From contig NZ_MPKA01000044.1 in the NCBI RefSeq assembly GCF_001945605.1, positions 150,001-182,000 on the forward strand: DNA of 32,000 bases, written 5' to 3'. Of this stretch, positions 245 through 12,992 are shown in pieces. This stretch comes from Dubosiella newyorkensis. GTDB lineage: Bacteria > Bacillota_I > Bacilli_A > Erysipelotrichales > Erysipelotrichaceae. The position numbers were made by a program, and so were the translations under genes. Within the stretch, counting starts at the first letter, position 1, and each line of letters opens with the position of its first letter. The notes below the pieces were generated by a model. The model was not told the DNA's origin. It saw only the letters and a program-made list of their open reading frames with translations, and ran no database searches.

Positions 245-646
245 ATGCTAGAGGAAATGGTTGCATCAAAAAACACATCAGTCGATCTTGTCGCGAAGGG
301 AACTTCCTTTTTAGGGTTGAGCTCTTATGGACAAATCATGGTCGGCAACAACGCTTTTGAATTTTACAACGATCGAAATGTAGCCGATTATATCCAAATT
401 CCTTGGGAAGAAGTCGATTATGTTTGTGCATCTGTGTACTTTAAAGGCAAATGGATTCCTCGGTATGCGATCGCCACGCTTCATAATGGAACATACACAT
501 TTGCTTCGAAAGAACCATTAAAAGTGTTGAAAGCGATCAAAAAATATGTTCCAGCTGATCATATCGTTAAGTCTTTGACCTTTTTTCAAGTCGTCAAGCG
601 TGGCTTGAAGCGAAAAGAGAAAGACCCAGCAAAAAGCGCCAATTGA
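245..646 (+). CDS. manO: DUF956 family protein (ManO-like)
   Basis: 133 aa with VDLVAKGTSFLGL...NAFEFYNDRNVADYIQIPWEEVDYV...GKWIPRYAI, the characteristic DUF956/ManO signature. It sits directly downstream of the IID gene. Confidence 0.85.
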   Translation: MLEEMVASKNTSVDLVAKGTSFLGLSSYGQIMVGNNAFEFYNDRNVADYIQIPWEEVDYVCASVYFKGKWIPRYAIATLHNGTYTFASKEPLKVLKAIKKYVPADHIVKSLTFFQVVKRGLKRKEKDPAKSAN

Positions 647-2052: not shown

Positions 2053-2385
2053 ATGTCAAGAAAACGAAAAGCAGGACCTCGGGCGACCGCCGCTTCGATG
2101 GTCTTGGAAACTTTAAAAAAAAGAAAGGCGTTTGATTCCAAGAGCGCGATTCCAGTTTCCGCCTTTAAAGATCTGCCTTTAGCGACAAAGACATTGGCGT
2201 ATACGATCGCTAATTTGGTCGAGGAGGGAGTCGTTGTCCAAACAGATGGCGATCTCTATTATTATGATGAGCTTGGCTTCAAAGCGCTGGAAGTGAAGTT
2301 CGTGAAAGGATATTCGATGTTTATCGTGATTCCGATCGTTCTTTTAGTGATCGTTTTGCTCGTTCAGCATTTTTTTCATATTTAG
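2053..2385 (+). CDS. Hypothetical small protein, possible winged-helix domain with C-terminal TM anchor
   Basis: ATG at 2053 is preceded by AAGGAAG; the ORF track's TTG at 2047 is less likely. The C-terminal segment MFIVIPIVLLVIVLLV is a single TM helix. I recognise no family. Confidence 0.5.
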   Translation: MSRKRKAGPRATAASMVLETLKKRKAFDSKSAIPVSAFKDLPLATKTLAYTIANLVEEGVVVQTDGDLYYYDELGFKALEVKFVKGYSMFIVIPIVLLVIVLLVQHFFHI

Positions 2386-4974: not shown

Positions 4975-5178
4975 GAATCTGTGACAATTTTCACTATGTT
5001 TATACGTCGAATCCTGAAATACTATATATAAAAGAGATTGTGGTAAGGACTGCATGTTGTTTGTGGCAAAAAGAAATGATGTTGCGAATTTTAAAGAAAT
5101 TATCGAAAAGTCAACAAAAAAAGAGCAGAAATTATTCAGTAAACCTGTTAAAATTATGGATAAATATGGGAATTTTGC

Positions 5179-5193
5179 TCGAAAACGCTTGCA
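5179..5193 (+). promoter_or_regulatory. cre-like (CcpA) operator overlapping the PTS promoter -35
   Basis: TCGAAAACGCTTGCA compared with the cre consensus WTGNAANCGNWNNCW has one mismatch (C for T at position 2). It overlaps the TTGCAT -35 box. Confidence 0.35.
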
Positions 5194-5217: not shown

Positions 5218-5255
5218 TACCTTAGTAAATCACATAGTTGAGATGGAGGAGAAAT

Positions 5256-5687
5256 ATGAAATATGTAGTTATGGTAAGCCATGGCGAATTTGCTCCAGGT
5301 CTTCATTCCGCTGTTAAAATGATGACTGGAAATCGTGACGATGTATTATCCACTAGCTTGAAAGAGGATATGAGCGCGGATGAATTCGCGGCGAACTTCA
5401 AGGAACTTGTGAAAGATCTAAAACCAGGGGAAGATCAAGTGATCTTGCTTGCGGATATTTTGAGCGGATCTCCATTCACGAACGCTTTAAGCGTTTTGGA
5501 TGAAAAAGGAATGCTTCAAGACTCGCTTGTGATCGCTGGAATGAACATGCCTCTTGCGATCACGGCTGTGCTCATGAAAGATAACTTTGACGATATGAAC
5601 GCTTTGAAAGAAACGCTGCTTAGTGAAGGAAAAGCGGGATTGACTGAATTCGTCGTTGCTGCTAACGATGACGAAGACGATCTTTAA
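5256..5687 (+). CDS. PTS mannose/fructose/sorbose-family EIIA
   Basis: ATG at 5256 follows GGAGGAG. The N-terminus MKYVVMVSHGEFAPGL carries the phosphorylatable His in the typical EIIA-Man context. Confidence 0.85.
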   Translation: MKYVVMVSHGEFAPGLHSAVKMMTGNRDDVLSTSLKEDMSADEFAANFKELVKDLKPGEDQVILLADILSGSPFTNALSVLDEKGMLQDSLVIAGMNMPLAITAVLMKDNFDDMNALKETLLSEGKAGLTEFVVAANDDEDDL

Positions 5688-5749
5688 AATTGGGTTTAAG
5701 CGTTAGGAAGCGCTGAATCATACGATCAAAATTAGAGGAGGAAAGAAAA

Positions 5750-6241
5750 ATGATTACTTTTATGCGTGTGGATGACCGTATCATTCACGGTCAAATCATC
5801 ACTCGTTGGTCAAAAGAGTACCCTTGTGATGGAATCATCGCGGTCAACGACAAAGCGGCTACGACACCAGTTCTTGCTCAATCTTTTAAAGCAAGCACGG
5901 ATAAGAAGGTGTTCGTATGGACGAAGGAACACTTCAAGGAAGTTCAAGACAAAGTTCTGAATTCTCCAAAGCGCTATTTCTTGATCACAAAGAATCCTGT
6001 GGATATGAAAGAGATCCTCGTAGATATGGATTTCAAGCCTAGCGATGTAAAAAAATTGATCATCGGACCTTGCAATGACCGTCCAGGAGCTACAAAACTT
6101 GGTCAAAACCAAAGTATCACGCAAGAAGAAGCAGACGCTCTTGAAGCGATCTACAAAAAAGGCTATGATGTTGAATTCGCGCTTTTGAAGGAAACATCGA
6201 TCGGTGAATGGCCAAAATTCAGATCTAAATTCGGTTATTGA
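5750..6241 (+). CDS. PTS mannose/sorbose-family EIIB
   Basis: The N-terminus MITFMRVDDRIIHGQIITRW is the canonical EIIB-Man/Sor active-site His motif. SD is GAGGAGG. Confidence 0.9.
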   Translation: MITFMRVDDRIIHGQIITRWSKEYPCDGIIAVNDKAATTPVLAQSFKASTDKKVFVWTKEHFKEVQDKVLNSPKRYFLITKNPVDMKEILVDMDFKPSDVKKLIIGPCNDRPGATKLGQNQSITQEEADALEAIYKKGYDVEFALLKETSIGEWPKFRSKFGY

Positions 6242-6294
6242 TTGGGAAGAACGATAATCGGTTAGATAAATTTAAGTAAAAGGAGAAGAGTTTT

Positions 6295-7137
6295 ATGAGT
6301 TTATTTCAAGCTATCTTGATTGGTTTGGTTTCTTGTACAGCTGCTTCCACGATTGCTTGCTTAGGTACGACAGTCGGTAACTATACGTTGAACCGTCCGC
6401 TCGTTGCATCCATGATCGTTGGTATCATTCTTGGCGATGTTTCTGGATGTATCTTAATTGGTATCCCTATGCAGGTTATGTGGATCGCGCTCGTTACACC
6501 TGGTGGAACTGTTGCATCAGACTTACGTGCCGTTTCTTATATCGGTATTCCTCTTGCCTATGTTGGCGTTAAGGCCGCTGGTATCGATCCTGCGTCCGAC
6601 GAAGCGTTCCAATTGGCAAGTTCTATTTCGGCCATGACTGGTACGATCGGTATCACGTTGTTCTATGGTACAGCGATGATGAACCTGATCTGGCAGCATA
6701 TTGGATGGGCAAAACTTGATAAAGGCGATTTCGAGATCGTTGGAAAAGTAGACGCTTTGATGCCTTTGATCTCTCACTTCTGCTTGTCTTTCTTGCCTGT
6801 TACTTTGCTTTGCTATTTTGGATCCGGAGCCGTTGAAGAAGTATTCAAGACGTTGGATGTATCTGTTTGGTATGTCAAGGCCCTTCTTTGCGTAGGTTCT
6901 GTTCTTCCAGCTGTTGGTATCGCGATCTTGTTGAAATCTGTGGTGAACAAAACATCTGACTTAGTATTCTTCCTTCTTGGTTTCGTTCTTGCAGCTGCAA
7001 TGGGATTGACTCTTCTTGCTGCTACAGTTGTTGGTGGTGTATTCGCTTTGATCAACTACCAGATGACAATGATCAAGATCGAGGCAAACAAAGGCGGCGG
7101 AGCTGCTGTTGTCGTTGAAGAAGAGGAGGATATTTAA
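6295..7137 (+). CDS. PTS mannose/fructose/sorbose-family EIIC
   Basis: 280-aa polytopic membrane protein located between IIB and IID, with an acidic tail VVVEEEEDI. SD is AAAGGAGAAG. Confidence 0.85.
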   Translation: MSLFQAILIGLVSCTAASTIACLGTTVGNYTLNRPLVASMIVGIILGDVSGCILIGIPMQVMWIALVTPGGTVASDLRAVSYIGIPLAYVGVKAAGIDPASDEAFQLASSISAMTGTIGITLFYGTAMMNLIWQHIGWAKLDKGDFEIVGKVDALMPLISHFCLSFLPVTLLCYFGSGAVEEVFKTLDVSVWYVKALLCVGSVLPAVGIAILLKSVVNKTSDLVFFLLGFVLAAAMGLTLLAATVVGGVFALINYQMTMIKIEANKGGGAAVVVEEEEDI

Positions 7138-7139
7138 TT

Positions 7140-7955
7140 ATGAAAAAGATTTCTAAAAAGACATTAAATTCATCCTTCTGGCGTTGGTGGTATGGAAACT
7201 TGACTTGTTTCTCTCACGAACACATGCAGACTTTTGGTTACATGTGGGCGATGATCCCTATTTTGAAGGAATTGTACCCTACTCATGAAGAACAAGCTGA
7301 AAAGCTTCAAACATACTATGCATTCTTCAATACAGAACCTCAAATTGGATGTATCGTAGTCGGTGTTACAGCTGGTTTGGAAGAAGCTCGTGCAAATGGC
7401 GCTGAAGGAATCGATGATGAAATGATCAATGGTATCCGTGCTGGTTTGATGGGTCCATTGGCTGGTATCGGTGACTCTTTGATCGTTGGTACGTATATTC
7501 CGATCTTGTTAGGTATCGCGGTAGGTCTTGCTGAAGGCGGATCTGTGATCGGTCCTATCTTCTACATCGTAGTTTGGAATATCACATCGACTTGGTTCCA
7601 AAAATTCGTATTCGATAAAGGATATTCTCTTGGTGGTTCTGCCGTAGAACTTCTCGTTGGTGAAAAGGCGACAGCGTTCCGTGAATCCGTTATCGTTATG
7701 GGTCAAGTTATCGTTGGTGCCATGGCCGCTTCTTGGGTCAACATCACTACTCCACTTCAAATCGCTACGAACTCTGAGGGTGAACCTGTAATGTTGCAGG
7801 CGAACTTAGATGGAGCGTTCCCTAAGATCTTGACAATGTTGTTTGTCGTATTCTGCTGGTGGCTCCAAGCGAAAAAAGGTTTAACACCAATCAAAGTCCT
7901 TCTTTTGATGGCAGTGATCGCTTTCGTTGGATCTGTTTTGGGTATTCTTGGATAG
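7140..7955 (+). CDS. PTS mannose/fructose/sorbose-family EIID
   Basis: The N-terminus SFWRWWYGNLTCFSHEHMQTFGYMWAMIPILKELY is typical of IID proteins. It starts 2 nt after the IIC stop. Confidence 0.9.
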   Translation: MKKISKKTLNSSFWRWWYGNLTCFSHEHMQTFGYMWAMIPILKELYPTHEEQAEKLQTYYAFFNTEPQIGCIVVGVTAGLEEARANGAEGIDDEMINGIRAGLMGPLAGIGDSLIVGTYIPILLGIAVGLAEGGSVIGPIFYIVVWNITSTWFQKFVFDKGYSLGGSAVELLVGEKATAFRESVIVMGQVIVGAMAASWVNITTPLQIATNSEGEPVMLQANLDGAFPKILTMLFVVFCWWLQAKKGLTPIKVLLLMAVIAFVGSVLGILG

Positions 7956-7970
7956 AATTAAAATCAGATG

Positions 7971-8006
7971 GAAGTGAAGATCAACACGTGTCTTCACTTC
8001 TTTTTT
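7971..8006 (+). terminator. Rho-independent terminator of the PTS operon
   Basis: GAAGTGAAGA (7971-7980) pairs with TCTTCACTTC (7991-8000) as a perfect 10-bp stem with a 10-nt loop, followed by T6. Confidence 0.85.
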
Positions 8007-8031: not shown

Positions 8032-8358
8032 ATGAAACTATCAAAAAGGGAACGAGAGGCGCTTGCTTTATCCATTCAACAAGAAAATGAAATGCTGAAG
8101 CGCGTAGGAAAGATCATTCGAAATTCATTTGTGGCTTTGGCGGTTTTTCTCTTGTTGTTTTACTGGGGATATTCTGAAATCCATGATGTATTTTTTCCTA
8201 ATCTTTCCGCAAGCGGCCATCAAGTGATCAAATGGATCGGGATCATAGGCTCGATCGCATCGCTAGCGATGTTGATCTTCTCATTGACAGCTCGCCATTA
8301 TGGAAAGAAGAACGTCTTGAAAAAGATCGATAAGTATCAAGGAAGAACATCTTCGTAG
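8032..8358 (+). CDS. Hypothetical small membrane protein (2 TM helices)
   Basis: 108 aa with SD AAGGGGG 5-6 nt upstream. The TM segments are FVALAVFLLLFYWGY and WIGIIGSIASLAMLIFSL. I recognise no family. Confidence 0.55.
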   Translation: MKLSKREREALALSIQQENEMLKRVGKIIRNSFVALAVFLLLFYWGYSEIHDVFFPNLSASGHQVIKWIGIIGSIASLAMLIFSLTARHYGKKNVLKKIDKYQGRTSS

Positions 8359-8439
8359 ATTTACTTTGGTCACTGTTCTTCACATATTTTTACATATTGT
8401 TGACATATTGAGTAGGTAGGATTTGAGTATTCTATAACC

Positions 8440-8519
8440 GAGCAAAGAAATGCTCACTTCATAATCAAATTCCCTTTCTTAAAACTTTCTTGGAAAGAAC
8501 CAGCGCGAGCTGGTTTTTT
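8440..8519 (+). ncRNA. Candidate small RNA, copy A (about 80 nt)
   Basis: A -10-like TATTCT (8428-8433) sits 7 nt before a 5' hairpin (GAGCA-AAGAAA-TGCTC). This is followed by an unpaired AU-rich stretch containing TTCCCTTTCTT, a small hairpin (CTTTC-TTG-GAAAG), and a terminator (CCAGC-GCGA-GCTGG plus T6). There is no convincing -35 box and the ends are only predicted. Confidence 0.45.
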
Positions 8520-8570
8520 CTTTTATACCGTTATTTCACATAAGTCTCCCATTCGATTGCGAAGATGAAT

Positions 8571-8579
8571 TGTTATGAT
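8571..8579 (+). promoter_or_regulatory. Extended -10 promoter (TGtTATGAT) of sRNA copy B
   Basis: TG at 8571-8572, one nt, then TATGAT at 8574-8579. The 5' hairpin of unit B begins 7 nt downstream. Confidence 0.5.
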
Positions 8580-8585
8580 ATAAAA

Positions 8586-8658
8586 GAACAGAAAGTAATC
8601 TGTTCACTTCATAATCAAATTTCCTTTCTTAAAAAAGTCGGTGTTTGCCGATTTTTTT
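8586..8658 (+). ncRNA. Candidate small RNA, copy B (about 73 nt)
   Basis: The 5' hairpin is GAACAG-AAAGTAAT-CTGTTC (8586-8605). The shared core carrying TTTCCTTTCTT follows. The terminator is AAAAGTCGG-TGTTTG-CCGATTTTT with a T7 run. Confidence 0.5.
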
Positions 8659-8739
8659 CTTTTTTATGCTTTAGTGCTTTCACATCAAATCACAAATTAT
8701 ATACATATTAAAAAAGTAGGTTTTAGGTATTCTATAACC

Positions 8740-8821
8740 GAGCAAAGAAATGCTCACTTCATAATCAAATTCCCTTTCTTAAAACTTTCTTGGAAAAAAA
8801 CCAGCTCTAGCTGGTTTTTTT
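8740..8821 (+). ncRNA. Candidate small RNA, copy C (about 80 nt)
   Basis: Same architecture as copy A at an exact +300 offset. The terminator is CCAGC-TCTA-GCTGG flanked by A7 and T7-8. Confidence 0.45.
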
Positions 8822-8866
8822 CATATTTACCTAAAAATCATGTAAGGTTTCTTTATGATAGGAATC

Positions 8867-8875
8867 TGATATAAT
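8867..8875 (+). promoter_or_regulatory. Extended -10 promoter (TGaTATAAT) of the glycosyltransferase cluster
   Basis: TG at 8867-8868, one nt, then a perfect TATAAT at 8870-8875. It lies just downstream of the copy-C terminator and about 25 nt upstream of the first GT start. Confidence 0.6.
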
Positions 8876-8899: not shown

Positions 8900-9958
8900 A
8901 TGAATCAAAGAAAATTAGAGATTACTATGTTCTCGAGTGCAGACAAGGTTGCTGGACAAGGCGTAGGGTCGGCCTATTTGGAACAAGTCAATCTATTGAA
9001 ATCGCAAGCAAGCGAGCTATTCGATATTAAGATAAATGACTGGTTCGCGAAAGCGGATATCAAGCATTTTCATACGATCGATCCTGCGTTTCTCGTTCCT
9101 ATGCTCGATAAAAAAGCAGTAAAGGTGGCGTATTGTCACTTTTTACCGGATACAGTTATCGATGGAAGTTTGAAGATCCCTTCTGCTTTTCAACCTTTAA
9201 CTTCTCACTATATCATTCATTTTTATAATATGGCGGATCATTTAGTCGTTGTAAATCCAAGCTTTATACCCGACTTAGTCCGTTATGGGATCCCTCGCGA
9301 AAAGATAACGTATATTCCAAATTATGTTTCAAAAGAAAAATTCCACTCTTTAGGACAAGCCAAGAAGGAAGAAACACGCCAAAAATATAATATTCCAGAA
9401 GACGCGTTCATCGCTTTAGGCGTTGGACAAGTTCAGACCCGGAAGGGAGTGCTTGATTTTTGCGAAGTCGCTCAGCTTTGTCCTGAAATCACATTCGTAT
9501 GGGCGGGCGGTTTTTCATTTGGCGCCATGACAGACGGCTATGAAGAACTAAAAGCGCTTATGGAAAATCCACCCGCAAATGTGCGGTTTATTGGAATCAT
9601 CGATCGAAGCGAAATGGTTTCCATTTATAATATGGCTGATGTTCTTTTTGTGCCAAGCTATAATGAACTATTTCCTATGACGATCTTGGAAGCAAGCAAT
9701 CTTGGAATTCCGCTGTTGCTTCGAGACCTGGATCTTTACCGAGATATCTTATTTGGCCATTATCTTATGGCCCAAAACAACGAGCAGTTTGCCAAAGATC
9801 TCATGGTCTTAAAAAAAGATCCGGCACTCTATCAAAAATATCAAAAAGAAAGCGAAGCGATCAGCGCCTATTACTCGAAAGAACACGTGGTCGAAATGTG
9901 GAAATCGTTTTATTTGGATGTTTATCATCAAAAACAAAGAGAGCTAGGAAACGAATAG
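8900..9958 (+). CDS. GT4-family glycosyltransferase, glycosyl-diacylglycerol (membrane glycolipid) synthase-like
   Basis: The N-terminus MFSSADKVAGQGVGSAY and the EX7E-type region FVPSYNELFPMTILEASNLG are typical of the Firmicute glycolipid GT pair. The start is ambiguous (ATG at 8888, 8900 or 8927); 8900 was chosen for its spacing from GAAAGGA. Confidence 0.75.
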   Translation: MNQRKLEITMFSSADKVAGQGVGSAYLEQVNLLKSQASELFDIKINDWFAKADIKHFHTIDPAFLVPMLDKKAVKVAYCHFLPDTVIDGSLKIPSAFQPLTSHYIIHFYNMADHLVVVNPSFIPDLVRYGIPREKITYIPNYVSKEKFHSLGQAKKEETRQKYNIPEDAFIALGVGQVQTRKGVLDFCEVAQLCPEITFVWAGGFSFGAMTDGYEELKALMENPPANVRFIGIIDRSEMVSIYNMADVLFVPSYNELFPMTILEASNLGIPLLLRDLDLYRDILFGHYLMAQNNEQFAKDLMVLKKDPALYQKYQKESEAISAYYSKEHVVEMWKSFYLDVYHQKQRELGNE

Positions 9959-9971
9959 AAAGATTTGGGAA

Positions 9972-11015
9972 ATGAAAAAGACAAACTATTTTTGGAATTT
10001 TGTCCTAATTGCGCTCATTACGGTTGTCGCGTTATGGTTTGCCCTCAAAGATAATTATCATGAAGTGATCAATGCGATCTCAAAATTGAATGGTTTTGCC
10101 CTCGCTCTCATATTAGCGTGGGGCATCGTCTATACGTGTGTATGGGGTATTGTATACCGCGTCCTTGGAAAAAAGTTCGTAAAAAATTATTCATTGTTAG
10201 ATGGGATCATCGTCGCCTTTACCGGTACCTTCTTTTCAGGCATCACGCCTTCGGCGACAGGCGGACAATTTGGACAAGCCTATGTTTTGAAAAAACAAGG
10301 AATCAGCTATGCCGACGGAGCTTCTCTGTTATGGGCTGATTTTATTATTTATCAAACAACAATGATGTTGTATGTAACTCTTTTATTTTTAAGTAAATTT
10401 TCCACCTATTCAGGCCATTCTGTTTGGTTTACACTTGTCTGGGCGGGATATGCGGTCAATGTCGTCGTTATTTTAGGCTTATATACGATGGCGATTTTTC
10501 CAAATGTATATATCCGACTCTCTCAATGGGCGGTAAAGATCCTTTCAAAGATCAAAGTCGTCAAAGATCCAGAAAAGACGCTCGAATCTTGGACGATGCA
10601 GATGACATCCTTTACCGGAGAAATCAAAAAACTATCAAAAGATAAATTGATCATTTTAAAATGTATGCTGATCAATTTTGTCCGCTTGACTTTGCTGTAT
10701 GCTTTGCCTTATGTGATCGCCGTGCTTTTAGGGATCCATTTGCCTTTGAGCAAACTCCTCGACGTGATCGCGCTTAGCTCCTTTGTGACGATGGCCAATA
10801 GCTTTATCCCTATTCCTGGAGCGAGCGGAGGAACGGAAATGATGTTTTCGATCGTCTTTTCTCCATTGTTTCACTCTCTAACAAGCGCCGTCTTGATTTT
10901 ATGGAGAGTTTCCACGTATCATATTATATTGGTGCTAGGAGGGATCATCTTCATGGTTGCCAAAGCGTACTACGAAAGAAGAAAAGACGCTCCTCATCCA
11001 GAAAGCGAGGCATAA
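9972..11015 (+). CDS. Lysylphosphatidylglycerol-synthase TM-region / flippase-like (UPF0104, MprF N-domain-like) membrane protein
   Basis: 347-aa polytopic protein with FFSGITPSATGGQFGQAYVLKKQGI and IPIPGASGGTEMMF, the two conserved glycine-rich motifs of this family. It sits between the two GT4 genes. Confidence 0.75.
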   Translation: MKKTNYFWNFVLIALITVVALWFALKDNYHEVINAISKLNGFALALILAWGIVYTCVWGIVYRVLGKKFVKNYSLLDGIIVAFTGTFFSGITPSATGGQFGQAYVLKKQGISYADGASLLWADFIIYQTTMMLYVTLLFLSKFSTYSGHSVWFTLVWAGYAVNVVVILGLYTMAIFPNVYIRLSQWAVKILSKIKVVKDPEKTLESWTMQMTSFTGEIKKLSKDKLIILKCMLINFVRLTLLYALPYVIAVLLGIHLPLSKLLDVIALSSFVTMANSFIPIPGASGGTEMMFSIVFSPLFHSLTSAVLILWRVSTYHIILVLGGIIFMVAKAYYERRKDAPHPESEA

Positions 11016-11018
11016 TAC

Positions 11019-12992
11019 ATGAATGTAGGTATTTTTACAGATTCCTATTTACCCGATATCAATGGTGTGGTCACCAGCATCGTGACGCTCAAAAAGGCGC
11101 TCGAGCAACTCGGTCACACCGTCTTTATTGTGTCCAATCATATCGGTACTCGAATTCTTTATGATCCAGAAGAAAGGATCTTACGCCTGCCTGGTGTCGA
11201 ACTTAAACATTTATATGGGTATACGATGTCGAGCCCCCTAAATTTCGCAAGAGAATATCTTGAAGAAATGGATCTAGACATTATTCATACCCAACACGAA
11301 TTTGGCGTATCGCTCTATGGAAGAATGATGGGCAAAGAACTCAATATTCCTGTTGTCTACACCTATCATACAATGTATGAAGATTATACCCACTACATCA
11401 ATCCATTCGACTTGAATCATATCGAAAAAGCCGGAAAATGGGTCGTCAAAAGCGCGTCCAGAAAGCTAGGCAATACAGTCCAGGCCGTGATCGCTCCTTC
11501 CGAAAAAACCAAAGAAACTTTATATGAATACGGCGTCCGTGCTCCAATCTATGTTGTTCCTACCGGACTGGACCTGGATCGTTTCAAACTTGAAAACCTC
11601 GAACTAGAAAAGATCCAAAACATCCGTGAACAGCTCGGATTTCACGAAGACACAAAAACACTCGTCTTTGTAGGACGGATCGCCAAAGAAAAATCAATCG
11701 AAATACCGATCGAAGCGCTCTCCCTCCTGAACGATCAAGACATCCATTTGATCATTGTTGGAGCAGGAACCGATGAAGAGTATTATCAAGAGCTTACTTG
11801 GAAAAAAGAGCTGGATCACCGCGTTCACTTTATCGGTAAGATCCCATCCGAACAAATTCCGTATTATTACGCCGCATTTGATGGATTCGTTTCTGCTTCT
11901 TTGACAGAAACACAAGGCTTGACTTATATTGAAGCGCTCGCGAGCGGATTGAATATATTTGGTCGCCGCGACGAAGTGCTCTACGATTTGATCGATGAAG
12001 GAAATACAGGCTATTATTTTGACGATGCGCAAGAACTCAGTCAAAAAATCGAACACTTTTTTTCTTTGTCGCGCGAAGAACGACAAAAAAAAGCCGACCT
12101 ATGTAGAGAAAAGACCATTCCTTACGCGAAAGAGCTTTTTGGACAAAAAGTCATCGCCGTCTATGAACAAGTGATCGATGATTATCGTTTGACGTTTACC
12201 GTAGAAAAGATCCGGATCCAAGATGACTTTGTGAAACTCTATTTAGAGCGCGAAAGCGATGAAGACACGATCAAGATCTTGATCCCGTTGGATGATTTTT
12301 TTGAATTGAAGATCGGACTGCATACGAAAGTCGATGCCTATCTTGTGTCTGGTTATTTAACGATGCAAGAATATTATCAAGCGTATTCGATACTCAAACG
12401 ACGAGTCTTCACGAAAGAACAGTCCGTATTTGAATTGAAACAATATGCCCATCATCATTTTGAATTGGATGAAGCCAAACTCAATCAGCTTATCCAAGAA
12501 TTCCAAGAAAAAAACTGGCTCAACGATCAAAAATATGCCTATGAAAAAGCAGAATATTGGCATGATATGGGCAACTCAAGACGAAATATCGCAGCCAAGC
12601 TTTCAAAAGCCGGGATCGCACGCGATTTGATTGACGAAGTTCTTCAAAATCTAAATACAAAAAAAGAGCTCGCGAACGCCCAAGCGCTCGCTCAGCGCTT
12701 GATCCAGACGGTAAAATTGCAGTCATCGAACATGAAACGGAAAAATATCATCCATAAATTGATCCAAAAAGGATACTCAAGCGATATCGCCCAAGAAGTT
12801 GGAGAAGCTCTAGAACTCGATGACAACGATGAAGAAGCGCTTCAGCTAACCTTTAAAAAGGCTGTGCGCCTCTATTCTTCCTTGCCAGAAGAAAAACGGC
12901 GCCAAAAAATTCGTCAATATTGCTTGCGGAACGGTTTTTCAGGACAAGAAATCGATGAAAAATTAGAAATGAGTGAAGAATTTAATGATTAA
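11019..12992 (+). CDS. Fusion protein: GT4 glycosyltransferase (aa 1 to about 388) plus full-length RecX-like domain (aa about 390-657)
   Basis: The N-terminus MNVGIFTDSYLPDINGVVTSIVTL and the EX7E region SLTETQGLTYIEALASG mark the GT4 part. The C-terminal part carries the three RecX helical repeats: WLNDQKYAYEKAEYW...IAAKLSKAGIARDLIDEVL, IIHKLIQKGYSSDIAQEV, and IRQYCLRNGFSGQEIDEKL. The frame is uninterrupted across the junction near nt 12180. Confidence 0.75.
   Translation: MNVGIFTDSYLPDINGVVTSIVTLKKALEQLGHTVFIVSNHIGTRILYDPEERILRLPGVELKHLYGYTMSSPLNFAREYLEEMDLDIIHTQHEFGVSLYGRMMGKELNIPVVYTYHTMYEDYTHYINPFDLNHIEKAGKWVVKSASRKLGNTVQAVIAPSEKTKETLYEYGVRAPIYVVPTGLDLDRFKLENLELEKIQNIREQLGFHEDTKTLVFVGRIAKEKSIEIPIEALSLLNDQDIHLIIVGAGTDEEYYQELTWKKELDHRVHFIGKIPSEQIPYYYAAFDGFVSASLTETQGLTYIEALASGLNIFGRRDEVLYDLIDEGNTGYYFDDAQELSQKIEHFFSLSREERQKKADLCREKTIPYAKELFGQKVIAVYEQVIDDYRLTFTVEKIRIQDDFVKLYLERESDEDTIKILIPLDDFFELKIGLHTKVDAYLVSGYLTMQEYYQAYSILKRRVFTKEQSVFELKQYAHHHFELDEAKLNQLIQEFQEKNWLNDQKYAYEKAEYWHDMGNSRRNIAAKLSKAGIARDLIDEVLQNLNTKKELANAQALAQRLIQTVKLQSSNMKRKNIIHKLIQKGYSSDIAQEVGEALELDDNDEEALQLTFKKAVRLYSSLPEEKRRQKIRQYCLRNGFSGQEIDEKLEMSEEFND

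Follow-up and report, generated by a model that had tools for sequence, protein, structure and literature searches.

Three tandem candidate small RNA genes of Dubosiella newyorkensis belong to a gene family conserved in Erysipelotrichaceae

The locus and its three tandem units

The 32-kb stretch of Dubosiella newyorkensis DNA analysed here (hereafter the window; GC content 43.5%) carries three similar units in tandem, at positions 8379-8822, between the genes of a mannose-type phosphotransferase system (PTS) and a glycolipid glycosyltransferase operon. An origin from Enterococcus or Listeria, considered on account of composition and the glycolipid genes, was rejected, as exact protein matches bear the annotation D. 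newyorkensis. We consider it fairly probable that these units are three paralogous genes for small RNAs of ca. 75-82 nt, which belong to a hitherto undescribed family and would mask translation start sites in trans. Independent small RNA genes had already been proposed for this region in an initial annotation made from the sequence alone, and the proposal is supported by the existence of a conserved family, by a promoter and a terminator at each copy and by a covarying stem.

A 31-nt core, TCACTTCATAATCAAATTCCCTTTCTTAAAA, occurs without mismatch at 8454-8484 and 8754-8784 and with one mismatch at 8604-8634, always on the + strand and with a spacing of 150 bp. This search of the window confirms the threefold occurrence in an exact 150-bp register, with 30/31 identity, given in the initial annotation. 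No further copy with up to three mismatches is present in the 32 kb, where none is expected (100 shuffles). Units A and C do share a long identical run as described before, which measures 70 nt (8427-8496 versus 8727-8796) rather than the 69 nt given. The predicted parts of the three units, with operator scores from a position weight matrix (PWM) and small RNA scores from a covariance model (CM), are as follows.

8379-8384, 8389-8394 and 8400-8405, + strand: unit A operator boxes TTCACA, TTTACA and TTGACA, separated by N4 and N5; PWM 20.9
8428-8433, + strand: unit A -10 box TATTCT, followed by the spacer ATAACC and then the hairpin; 6 nt before the hairpin
8440-8520, + strand: predicted small RNA A, ca. 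81 nt; fold -20.7 kcal/mol, z -2.9; CM 74.7 bits
8440-8455, 8456-8491 and 8492-8520, + strand: small RNA A hairpin GAGCA/TGCTC, unpaired core and terminator (inverted repeat and T-run)
8535-8540, + strand: unit B operator box TTCACA, its first base exactly 51 nt upstream of the B hairpin; PWM 13.7
8546-8551, + strand: unit B weak second box CTCCCA
8571-8579, + strand: unit B extended -10 TG-t-TATGAT, spacer ATAAAA; 6 nt before the hairpin
8586-8660, + strand: predicted small RNA B, ca. 75 nt; fold -16.0 kcal/mol, z -3.6; CM 54.7 bits
8586-8605, 8606-8630 and 8631-8658, + strand: small RNA B hairpin GAACAG/CTGTTC, core and terminator (terminator scan)
8679-8684, 8689-8694 and 8700-8705, + strand: unit C operator boxes TTCACA, ATCACA and TATACA; PWM 19.3
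8728-8733, + strand: unit C -10 box TATTCT, geometry as in unit A
8740-8822, + strand: predicted small RNA C, ca. 82 nt; fold -18.4 kcal/mol, z -3.4; CM 74.7 bits
8740-8755, 8756-8791 and 8793-8822, + strand: small RNA C hairpin, core and terminator (perfect 14-nt inverted repeat)

The minimum free energy folds of all three units consist of a 5' hairpin, ca. 26-37 unpaired nucleotides and a terminator hairpin with a U-run. The terminator scan lists unit B only, and the terminators of A and C are perfect or near-perfect inverted repeats followed by T-runs. Folds, inverted repeats and terminator scan together bear out the layout of hairpin, unpaired CU-rich stretch and terminator that had been described. 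The hairpin starts 7 nt after the last -10 base in each unit, again as described; only this spacing is comparable, the initial annotation having given no absolute -10 positions. The core of small RNA B is a UUUCCUUUCUU variant.

In unit A the operator displays an 11-bp period (8382-8410, Tandem Repeats Finder), its final box ends 22 nt before the -10 and TTTACA starts exactly 51 nt before the hairpin, a geometry that is the same in all other genera. The ATCACA box of unit C likewise starts 51 nt before its hairpin, and the sequence of this operator is like that of the glycosyltransferase-proximal copy of strain OPF54. The hexamer TATTCT also serves as -10 in copies of Allobaculum and Ileibacterium. 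A scan with the sigma-70 consensus detected no canonical -35/-10 pair at the units, which agrees with the comparative picture of promoters that lack a -35 element (see below).

A gene family in many genera

One genome per species (185,579 species) was scanned with the exact pattern CATAATCAAATTNCCTTTCTT, which yielded 72 loci. About 60 of the matches possess the same 5' hairpin and terminator context, and the flanks CACTT and AAAACTTTCTTG, which lie outside the search pattern, are present in these true matches; the others are isolated and situated within genes. True matches were found in D. muris, strains OPF54 and M10-2, Ileibacterium, Allobaculum, Faecalibaculum, Holdemanella, Absicoccus, Faecalicoccus, Faecalitalea, Catenisphaera and Floccifex, and a few come from metagenome-assembled genomes that are labelled otherwise and have the same flanking genes. 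The loci closest to the window are those of D. muris, OPF54 and M10-2, which have at least 8-10 copies each, several of them in tandem pairs 250-300 bp apart. D. newyorkensis itself is absent from the scan loci, and its three copies are a count for the window only.

With a covariance model of the 5' hairpin and the single strand (R1), true copies obtain 42-82 bits and chance pattern matches at most 31 bits; the window yields exactly three copies. The model also recovers diverged copies missed by the pattern (L007, L028), by which Ileibacterium likewise becomes a three-copy tandem. Genome scan and covariance model together give a total of ca. 70 copies, nearly all in Erysipelotrichaceae. A terminator-like hairpin with a T-run follows 29-58 nt 3' of the core in all 58 unique copies, and 61 of 69 copies lie outside any open reading frame (ORF) of at least 120 aa. 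The element is therefore a gene family conserved over many genera of Erysipelotrichaceae, often in multiple copies, and it displays what is generally expected of small RNA genes, i.e., an own promoter, a terminator, an intergenic site and a covarying structure.

Multiple copies, dispersed in some genomes, might also be expected from a passive repeat similar to repetitive extragenic palindromes (REP) or miniature inverted-repeat transposable elements (MITE), or the conserved feature may reside on the minus strand, where every copy contains TTTTAAGAAAGGGAATTTGATTATGAAGTGA, a strong Shine-Dalgarno sequence with the two-codon ORF ATG AAG TGA, and some of the terminators are bidirectional. We regard this explanation as extremely unlikely. 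Terminal inverted repeats and target-site duplications are lacking, the only inverted repeats being the RNA's own hairpins, and the duplicated unit is a gene from promoter to terminator. Synteny across genera shows vertical inheritance. The family has no plasmid match, and the single match in IMG/VR is a complete member at the very end of the DNA available for its contig (L076, 14618-14679, - strand), which may be host flank. The -10 and the operator keep fixed distances on the + strand, no conserved minus-strand promoter was found, and in Holdemanella and others a T-run follows the stem on the + strand alone. Hence a repeat dispersed without promoter and terminator, which the initial annotation had named as one observation that would speak against small RNA genes, is not what we find: copies are scattered over the genomes of relatives, but each of them is a complete gene.

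Gene order and independence from the glycosyltransferase operon

The genes next to the units in the window are listed here.

5238-7955, + strand: mannose-type PTS genes IIA-IIB-IIC-IID (Pfam), the upstream neighbour
8032-8358, + strand: gene for a 108-aa membrane protein without known family, 3' of the PTS genes
8870-8875, + strand: -10 box TATAAT of the glycosyltransferase operon's own promoter
8900-9958, + strand: GT4 glycosyltransferase (Pfam), the downstream neighbour
9972-11015, + strand: LPG_synthase_TM protein (Pfam), second gene of the glycosyltransferase operon

The order PTS, 108-aa gene, small RNA gene(s), glycosyltransferase operon is kept across genera; PTS and small RNA are syntenic in at least 20 loci, and so are PTS and the 108-aa gene. 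Where the PTS is not adjacent (L006, L007, L017, L044, L045), a small RNA copy is still located directly 5' of the glycosyltransferase gene. This constant position of the ancestral copy in front of the GT4 / LPG_synthase_TM operon would suit a module acting in cis, either a leader or attenuator of that operon or a terminator stack that insulates it from the PTS, with no function in trans. Such a module is very unlikely in our opinion. In all genera a gaTATAAT element (with a -35 such as TTGGAC in Holdemanella) separates the small RNA terminator from the glycosyltransferase gene, and this separate, conserved promoter indicates that the small RNA is a gene of its own and not an operon leader. 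The dispersed copies of the Dubosiella clade adjoin unrelated genes and have their own promoter, and a mere terminator stack needs no conserved 5' hairpin, core or operator.

Covariation of the 5' stem

The 5' stem has the consensus U-GAGC-N / N'-GCUC-A, and it covaries. In the MAFFT alignment 81.9% of the cells are paired, versus 22-40% after a shift of the 3' partner by 1-3 columns, and the covariation score was reached by none of 500 shuffles. In the model-fitted alignment of 58 copies, which leans to structure by construction, the values are 85.6% versus 15-44%, with double changes in six of the seven pairs. The apical pair is variously UA (23), CG (21), UG (4) and AU (3). Wholly different stems occupy the same place in unit B, in the Floccifex group (GGGGUU/AACCC) and in L045 (AUGACC/GGUCAU). 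The difference in stem sequence between units A/C and B, together with the identical structure, had been recognised in the initial annotation and proves to be one case of covariation across the family. The loop sequence AAGGA is found in several 5' hairpins, and Holdemanella and Dubosiella have the loops AAAGAUA or GAAACAA.

Promoters, operator and the link to the PTS

The -10 box is located 6 nt before the hairpin in every copy and in both of the promoter classes described below, and this fixed distance suggests that the RNA starts at the stem base. Syntenic copies, including all three units of the window, lack a -35 element and carry tandem direct repeats with a 10-11-bp period in its place. 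The operator, with the consensus TTCACATAAT-TTCACATAAT and a weaker third repeat, ends 22 nt upstream of the -10, and the distance of box 1 to the hairpin is exactly 45 nt in at least 30 promoters of many genera, unit B included. Because the direct repeats stand in place of a -35, transcription probably requires an activator that binds them. The dispersed copies of the Dubosiella clade have the other class of promoter, TTGnnA, 17 nt, TGnTTTAAT, with a conserved GAGCRTT upstream. A sigma-54 promoter was considered for these copies and rejected: TTGGCAC-N5-TTTGA is present in some and missing in most, and the consensus is that of an ordinary promoter.

The small RNA operators served to build the PWM, which was then run over 573 kb of related loci. 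All ten high-scoring sites away from small RNA genes fall into the promoter region of a mannose-type PTS, where they are inverted and lie just upstream of the catabolite-responsive element (cre) or -35 element. They stem from Holdemanella and at least four other lineages, plus an independently fetched lineage (L081); the strong inverted box at the PTS promoter in other genera is ATGTGAAAATATGTGT. Since many genera have this operator, inverted, at their PTS promoter, the small RNAs and the mannose-type PTS probably constitute one regulon, which is concrete and testable. The window contains the following counterpart.

5153-5172, - strand: degenerate inverted tandem box at the PTS promoter, ATTATGGATAAATATGGGAA on the + strand; 8 nt upstream of a cre-like site

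The cre-like site, GAAAACGCTTGCA (5181-5193), just downstream of this box, suggests that the PTS is also under CcpA control. In Holdemanella (L043, 4036-4110; equivalents in L048, L051, L036, L029 and L062) a -10-like TAGAAT follows the inverted PTS box at a distance that deviates by at most one base from that in the small RNA promoters, a hint that a divergent transcript may arise there.

Tandem TTnACA half-sites about one helical turn apart are typical of regulators of the OmpR/PhoB type, and a response regulator of this type would be the most likely candidate for the operator's binder. The PHO box of B. subtilis, for instance, is TT(A/T/C)ACA with an 11-bp periodicity (PMC11870197). An assignment to PhoP was nevertheless not retained: the boxes fit the PHO-box description, but the link to the PTS promoter points elsewhere, and we therefore speak of an OmpR/PhoB-type operator only. 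DnaA boxes were also considered, as TTWTNCACA matches some operator boxes at eight of nine positions, and were judged unlikely.

The unpaired core and its possible targets

The stretch between the hairpins, 5'-ACUUCAUAAUCAAAUUCCCUUUCUUAAAACUUUCUUG, is nearly invariant and unpaired, and its complement, AAGAAAGGGAAUUUGAUUAUGAAGU, reads as a Shine-Dalgarno-like AAAGGG, 9 nt and AUG. A second CU-rich motif, CUUUCUUG, follows 3' of the first in most copies and is missing from unit B. The initial annotation had pointed to the likeness to an anti-Shine-Dalgarno sequence and overlooked that the core also holds an anti-start-codon CAU. With both at the right spacing, the core is complementary to an entire translation initiation region, a property it has in common with the streptococcal csRNAs, and this reading of the complement is the ground for the pairing in trans that we propose.

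We envisage that each gene is transcribed on the + strand from the activator-dependent promoter without -35, and that the transcript starts at, or 1 nt before, the 5'-terminal stem-loop and ends at the intrinsic terminator. 5'-terminal stem-loops are known as stabilisers in Firmicutes. The unpaired core would anneal in trans to the translation initiation regions of mRNAs and thereby keep the 30S subunit from binding, a mechanism like that of the streptococcal csRNAs and of Listeria LhrC, and tandem plus dispersed paralogues would provide dosage or redundancy. The complementarity is what suggests this anti-Shine-Dalgarno action. Among the 32 start regions in the window, nine pair with the small RNA at -18.5 kcal/mol or better, against a background with a mean of -9.1 kcal/mol, a standard deviation of 3.5 and a first percentile of -19.2; the start regions of the window are thus far better than random. 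The best candidate target in the window is the ORF at 2053-2385 (-26.1 kcal/mol, 13 contiguous pairs including the AUG), and the start region of the 108-aa gene reaches -20.9 kcal/mol in the window and -26.1 in D. muris.

Several observations weigh against masking of start sites by an operator-controlled RNA family. No conserved target emerged: the start regions of ORF 2053-2385, the 108-aa gene and IID pair well in some species and not across genera, the extended match of ORF 2053-2385 is lost in M10-2 and other genera, and the medians of pairing for gene families across species (-9.5 to -18.6 kcal/mol) are unremarkable. The CU-rich motif UCCCUUUCU pairs best with AGAAAGGG and not with the core GGAGG of the Shine-Dalgarno sequence. 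An exact 21-mer was the seed of the family alignment, by which conservation of the core partly reflects how the copies were picked; the only unbiased view of conservation is given by the flanks and by the three copies found by the model alone. On the side of regulation, the operator at the PTS promoter is degenerate in D. newyorkensis and its closest relatives, and tblastn of 600 kb with an E. coli OmpR query found no OmpR-type gene near any true copy, the only match being in L010, a chance locus.

Finally, the invariant single strand (26-38 nt) exceeds a typical seed in length, and the partner could be a protein or the ribosome rather than mRNAs. The RNAs might then be decoys, whose pyrimidine-rich single strand titrates an RNA-binding protein (S1-like, KH-domain or CsrA-like) or the 30S subunit; the high copy number in the relatives of Dubosiella would suit titration, the lack of a conserved mRNA target would be explained, and the AAGGA in several 5'-hairpin loops is similar to a CsrA site. 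This loop is not universal, as the Holdemanella and Dubosiella sequences demonstrate, and a complement that comprises Shine-Dalgarno sequence, 9-nt spacer and AUG is unexpected from chance or from a protein site. LhrC and RoxS are generally known to act by base pairing. The same has been shown for the csRNAs, which are likewise CU-rich sibling RNAs (PMC3091779). Altogether a decoy appears unlikely to us, and we prefer the masking of start sites by base pairing.

Comparison with known RNA families

The initial annotation could place the units in no known RNA family, and indeed Rfam 15 has no match at the gathering threshold for the small RNA units in the window and in 18 related loci of many genera. 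The sole threshold match in these searches is an unrelated T-box leader (L013, 3611-3814, - strand, 110.9 bits) beside the Faecalibaculum tandem pair. No account of the family turned up in literature searches by organism and by core sequence. Under permissive thresholds, csRNA (RF02379) is the recurrent best or near-best weak Rfam match in three genera, at full length and on the correct strand, with 23.4 bits for unit C, 19.2 for unit A, 20.0 in Holdemanella and 18.7 in M10-2; the gathering cut-off of 57 bits is reached by none of the scored units or loci.

The csRNAs consist of two stem-loops and an unpaired stretch with anti-Shine-Dalgarno and anti-AUG sequences (PMC3091779), and the unpaired core of the present family, CUUCAUAAUCAAAUUCCCUUUCUU, likewise has a CAU 5' of a CU-rich anti-Shine-Dalgarno motif. 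Further likenesses are the size (ca. 80-100 nt), the placing of the unpaired stretch between a 5' and a terminator stem-loop, several highly similar paralogues per genome, and a direct-repeat operator that replaces the -35 in the promoter. CiaR of S. pneumoniae is an activator of the five csRNA genes and a repressor of manLMN, so that the csRNA regulator also controls a mannose-family PTS (PMC8317062). Here the operator is common with a mannose-type PTS.

In contrast, the CiaR repeat NTTAAG-N5-TTTAAG lies 10 nt from the -10, whereas the repeats here are of the TTCACATAAT type (TTCACA-N4/5-nnnACA) at 22 nt, and the nonamer (A/C)UCCUAAA(A/C) that follows the first stem in csRNAs is absent from that place (PMC3091779); its nearest match is UCUUAAAAC, 3' of the anti-Shine-Dalgarno motif. 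The anti-Shine-Dalgarno sequence is CCUCC in csRNAs and UCCCUUUCU here, the 5' loop is CCUCCU there and purine-rich here, and the hosts are Bacilli there and the class Erysipelotrichia here.

The units might be divergent true members of the csRNA family under a CiaR orthologue with a drifted recognition sequence, working by the same mechanism as proposed above. The recurrent weak matches, the common UUCAUAAU...UCC layout, the resemblance of UCUUAAAAC to the nonamer part UCCUAAA(A/C) and the co-regulation with the PTS, as in the CiaR regulon, agree with such a descent, which we nonetheless hold to be improbable in view of scores far under the cut-off, the different operator and the displaced nonamer; moreover, the start regions of low-GC genomes are alike, by which convergence is possible. 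The parallel to CiaR, csRNAs and manLMN is striking and, being an analogy, proves no homology.

LhrC (RF00616) has no match in the window at E <=10 and scores 15.7 bits on L011 versus a cut-off of 110. The LhrC RNAs of Listeria (LhrC1-5, Rli22, Rli33-1) are encoded by tandem sibling genes controlled by the envelope-stress two-component system LisRK. They mask mRNA start sites, directing CU-rich UCCC motifs in the loop, the single strand and the terminator loop against AG-rich ribosome-binding sites. These UCCC motifs are in separate places, whereas the family described here has one long single strand plus an anti-AUG. RsaE/RoxS (RF01820) has no match in the window either, and 15.1 bits on L011 versus a cut-off of 79. 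It is conserved in Bacillales, directs C-rich unpaired motifs against Shine-Dalgarno regions and is under ResD/SrrA; the TTCACA box corresponds to the ResD half-site TTGTGAA read on the opposite strand. RoxS differs by its CCCC motifs, a single copy, the lack of an anti-AUG and another structure.

We thus interpret the units as a new family among sibling CU-rich small RNAs antisense to translation start regions, a kind of RNA that is already known. Neither Rfam 15 nor the literature that could be searched yielded a described regulatory RNA for Erysipelotrichaceae. This group includes abundant gut inhabitants such as Dubosiella, Faecalibaculum and Holdemanella, whose links to host metabolism and immunity are under study, and with up to about ten copies per genome the family offers a way into post-transcriptional control in Erysipelotrichaceae. 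It likewise provides a natural comparison for the origin of sibling RNAs antisense to start regions (csRNA, LhrC) by descent versus convergence.

A candidate local regulator

The ORF at 2053-2385 (+ strand) encodes 110 aa without a Pfam or NCBIfam match. Its family comprises at least 68 clusters, one of which is termed 'predicted transcriptional regulator' by JGI, and in several genera the gene is located directly upstream of the PTS promoter with inverted boxes. An AlphaFold model from a 39-sequence alignment (mean pLDDT, the predicted local distance difference test, 79.7) has the predicted topology helix-strand-helix-helix-wing, and then a long helix and a hydrophobic helix at the C-terminus. 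The solved structures that match it best belong without exception to winged-helix DNA-binding proteins (TubR, LmrR, RTP, MarR, GntR-like, IclR), with a modest best E-value of 7.7e-3. Judging from this model, the product might be a local regulator, although with low probability.

If so, one could imagine, in place of a classical two-component system, a local sugar-flux circuit in which the membrane-anchored winged-helix protein binds the TTCACATAAT repeats at the PTS and small RNA promoters, senses PTS transport and releases a burst of the multi-copy RNA that brakes translation initiation, with feedback on the protein's own start region. We put this forward as a speculation that is more probably wrong than right by a wide measure. 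Were it true, and homologous to the CiaR-csRNA-manLMN system, it would represent an ancient module common to two classes of Bacillota.

Further observations on the neighbouring genes

The glycosyltransferase operon extends to 12992 and beyond and includes a GT4-RecX fusion, a YhaM-like exonuclease and a MiaB-like enzyme. The fusion, a 657-aa ORF (11019-12992, + strand), combines a GT4 glycosyltransferase with C-terminal RecX three-helix repeats; at least six related loci (L027, L012/L067, L053, L030, L031, L044) have retained it over the full length. In the promoter of the operon (8841-8875, + strand), TGTAAG-N5-TTTATG lies 12 nt upstream of TATAAT, and ATCATGTAAGGTTT in this promoter is kept in the Dubosiella clade. 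The TGTAAG-N5-TTTATG element is similar to the boxes of CiaR (NTTAAG-N5-TTTAAG) and WalR (TGTWAH-N5-TGTWAH).

An intrinsic terminator at 7970-8001 is followed 31 nt later by the start of the 108-aa gene, with no space for a promoter, and the same arrangement is found in D. muris, OPF54 and M10-2; the gene is probably expressed through terminator read-through. A DUF956 (ManO-like) gene lies at 245-646 (+ strand), 4.6 kb upstream of the PTS operon, unlike in lactic acid bacteria, where it is situated at the end of the PTS operon.

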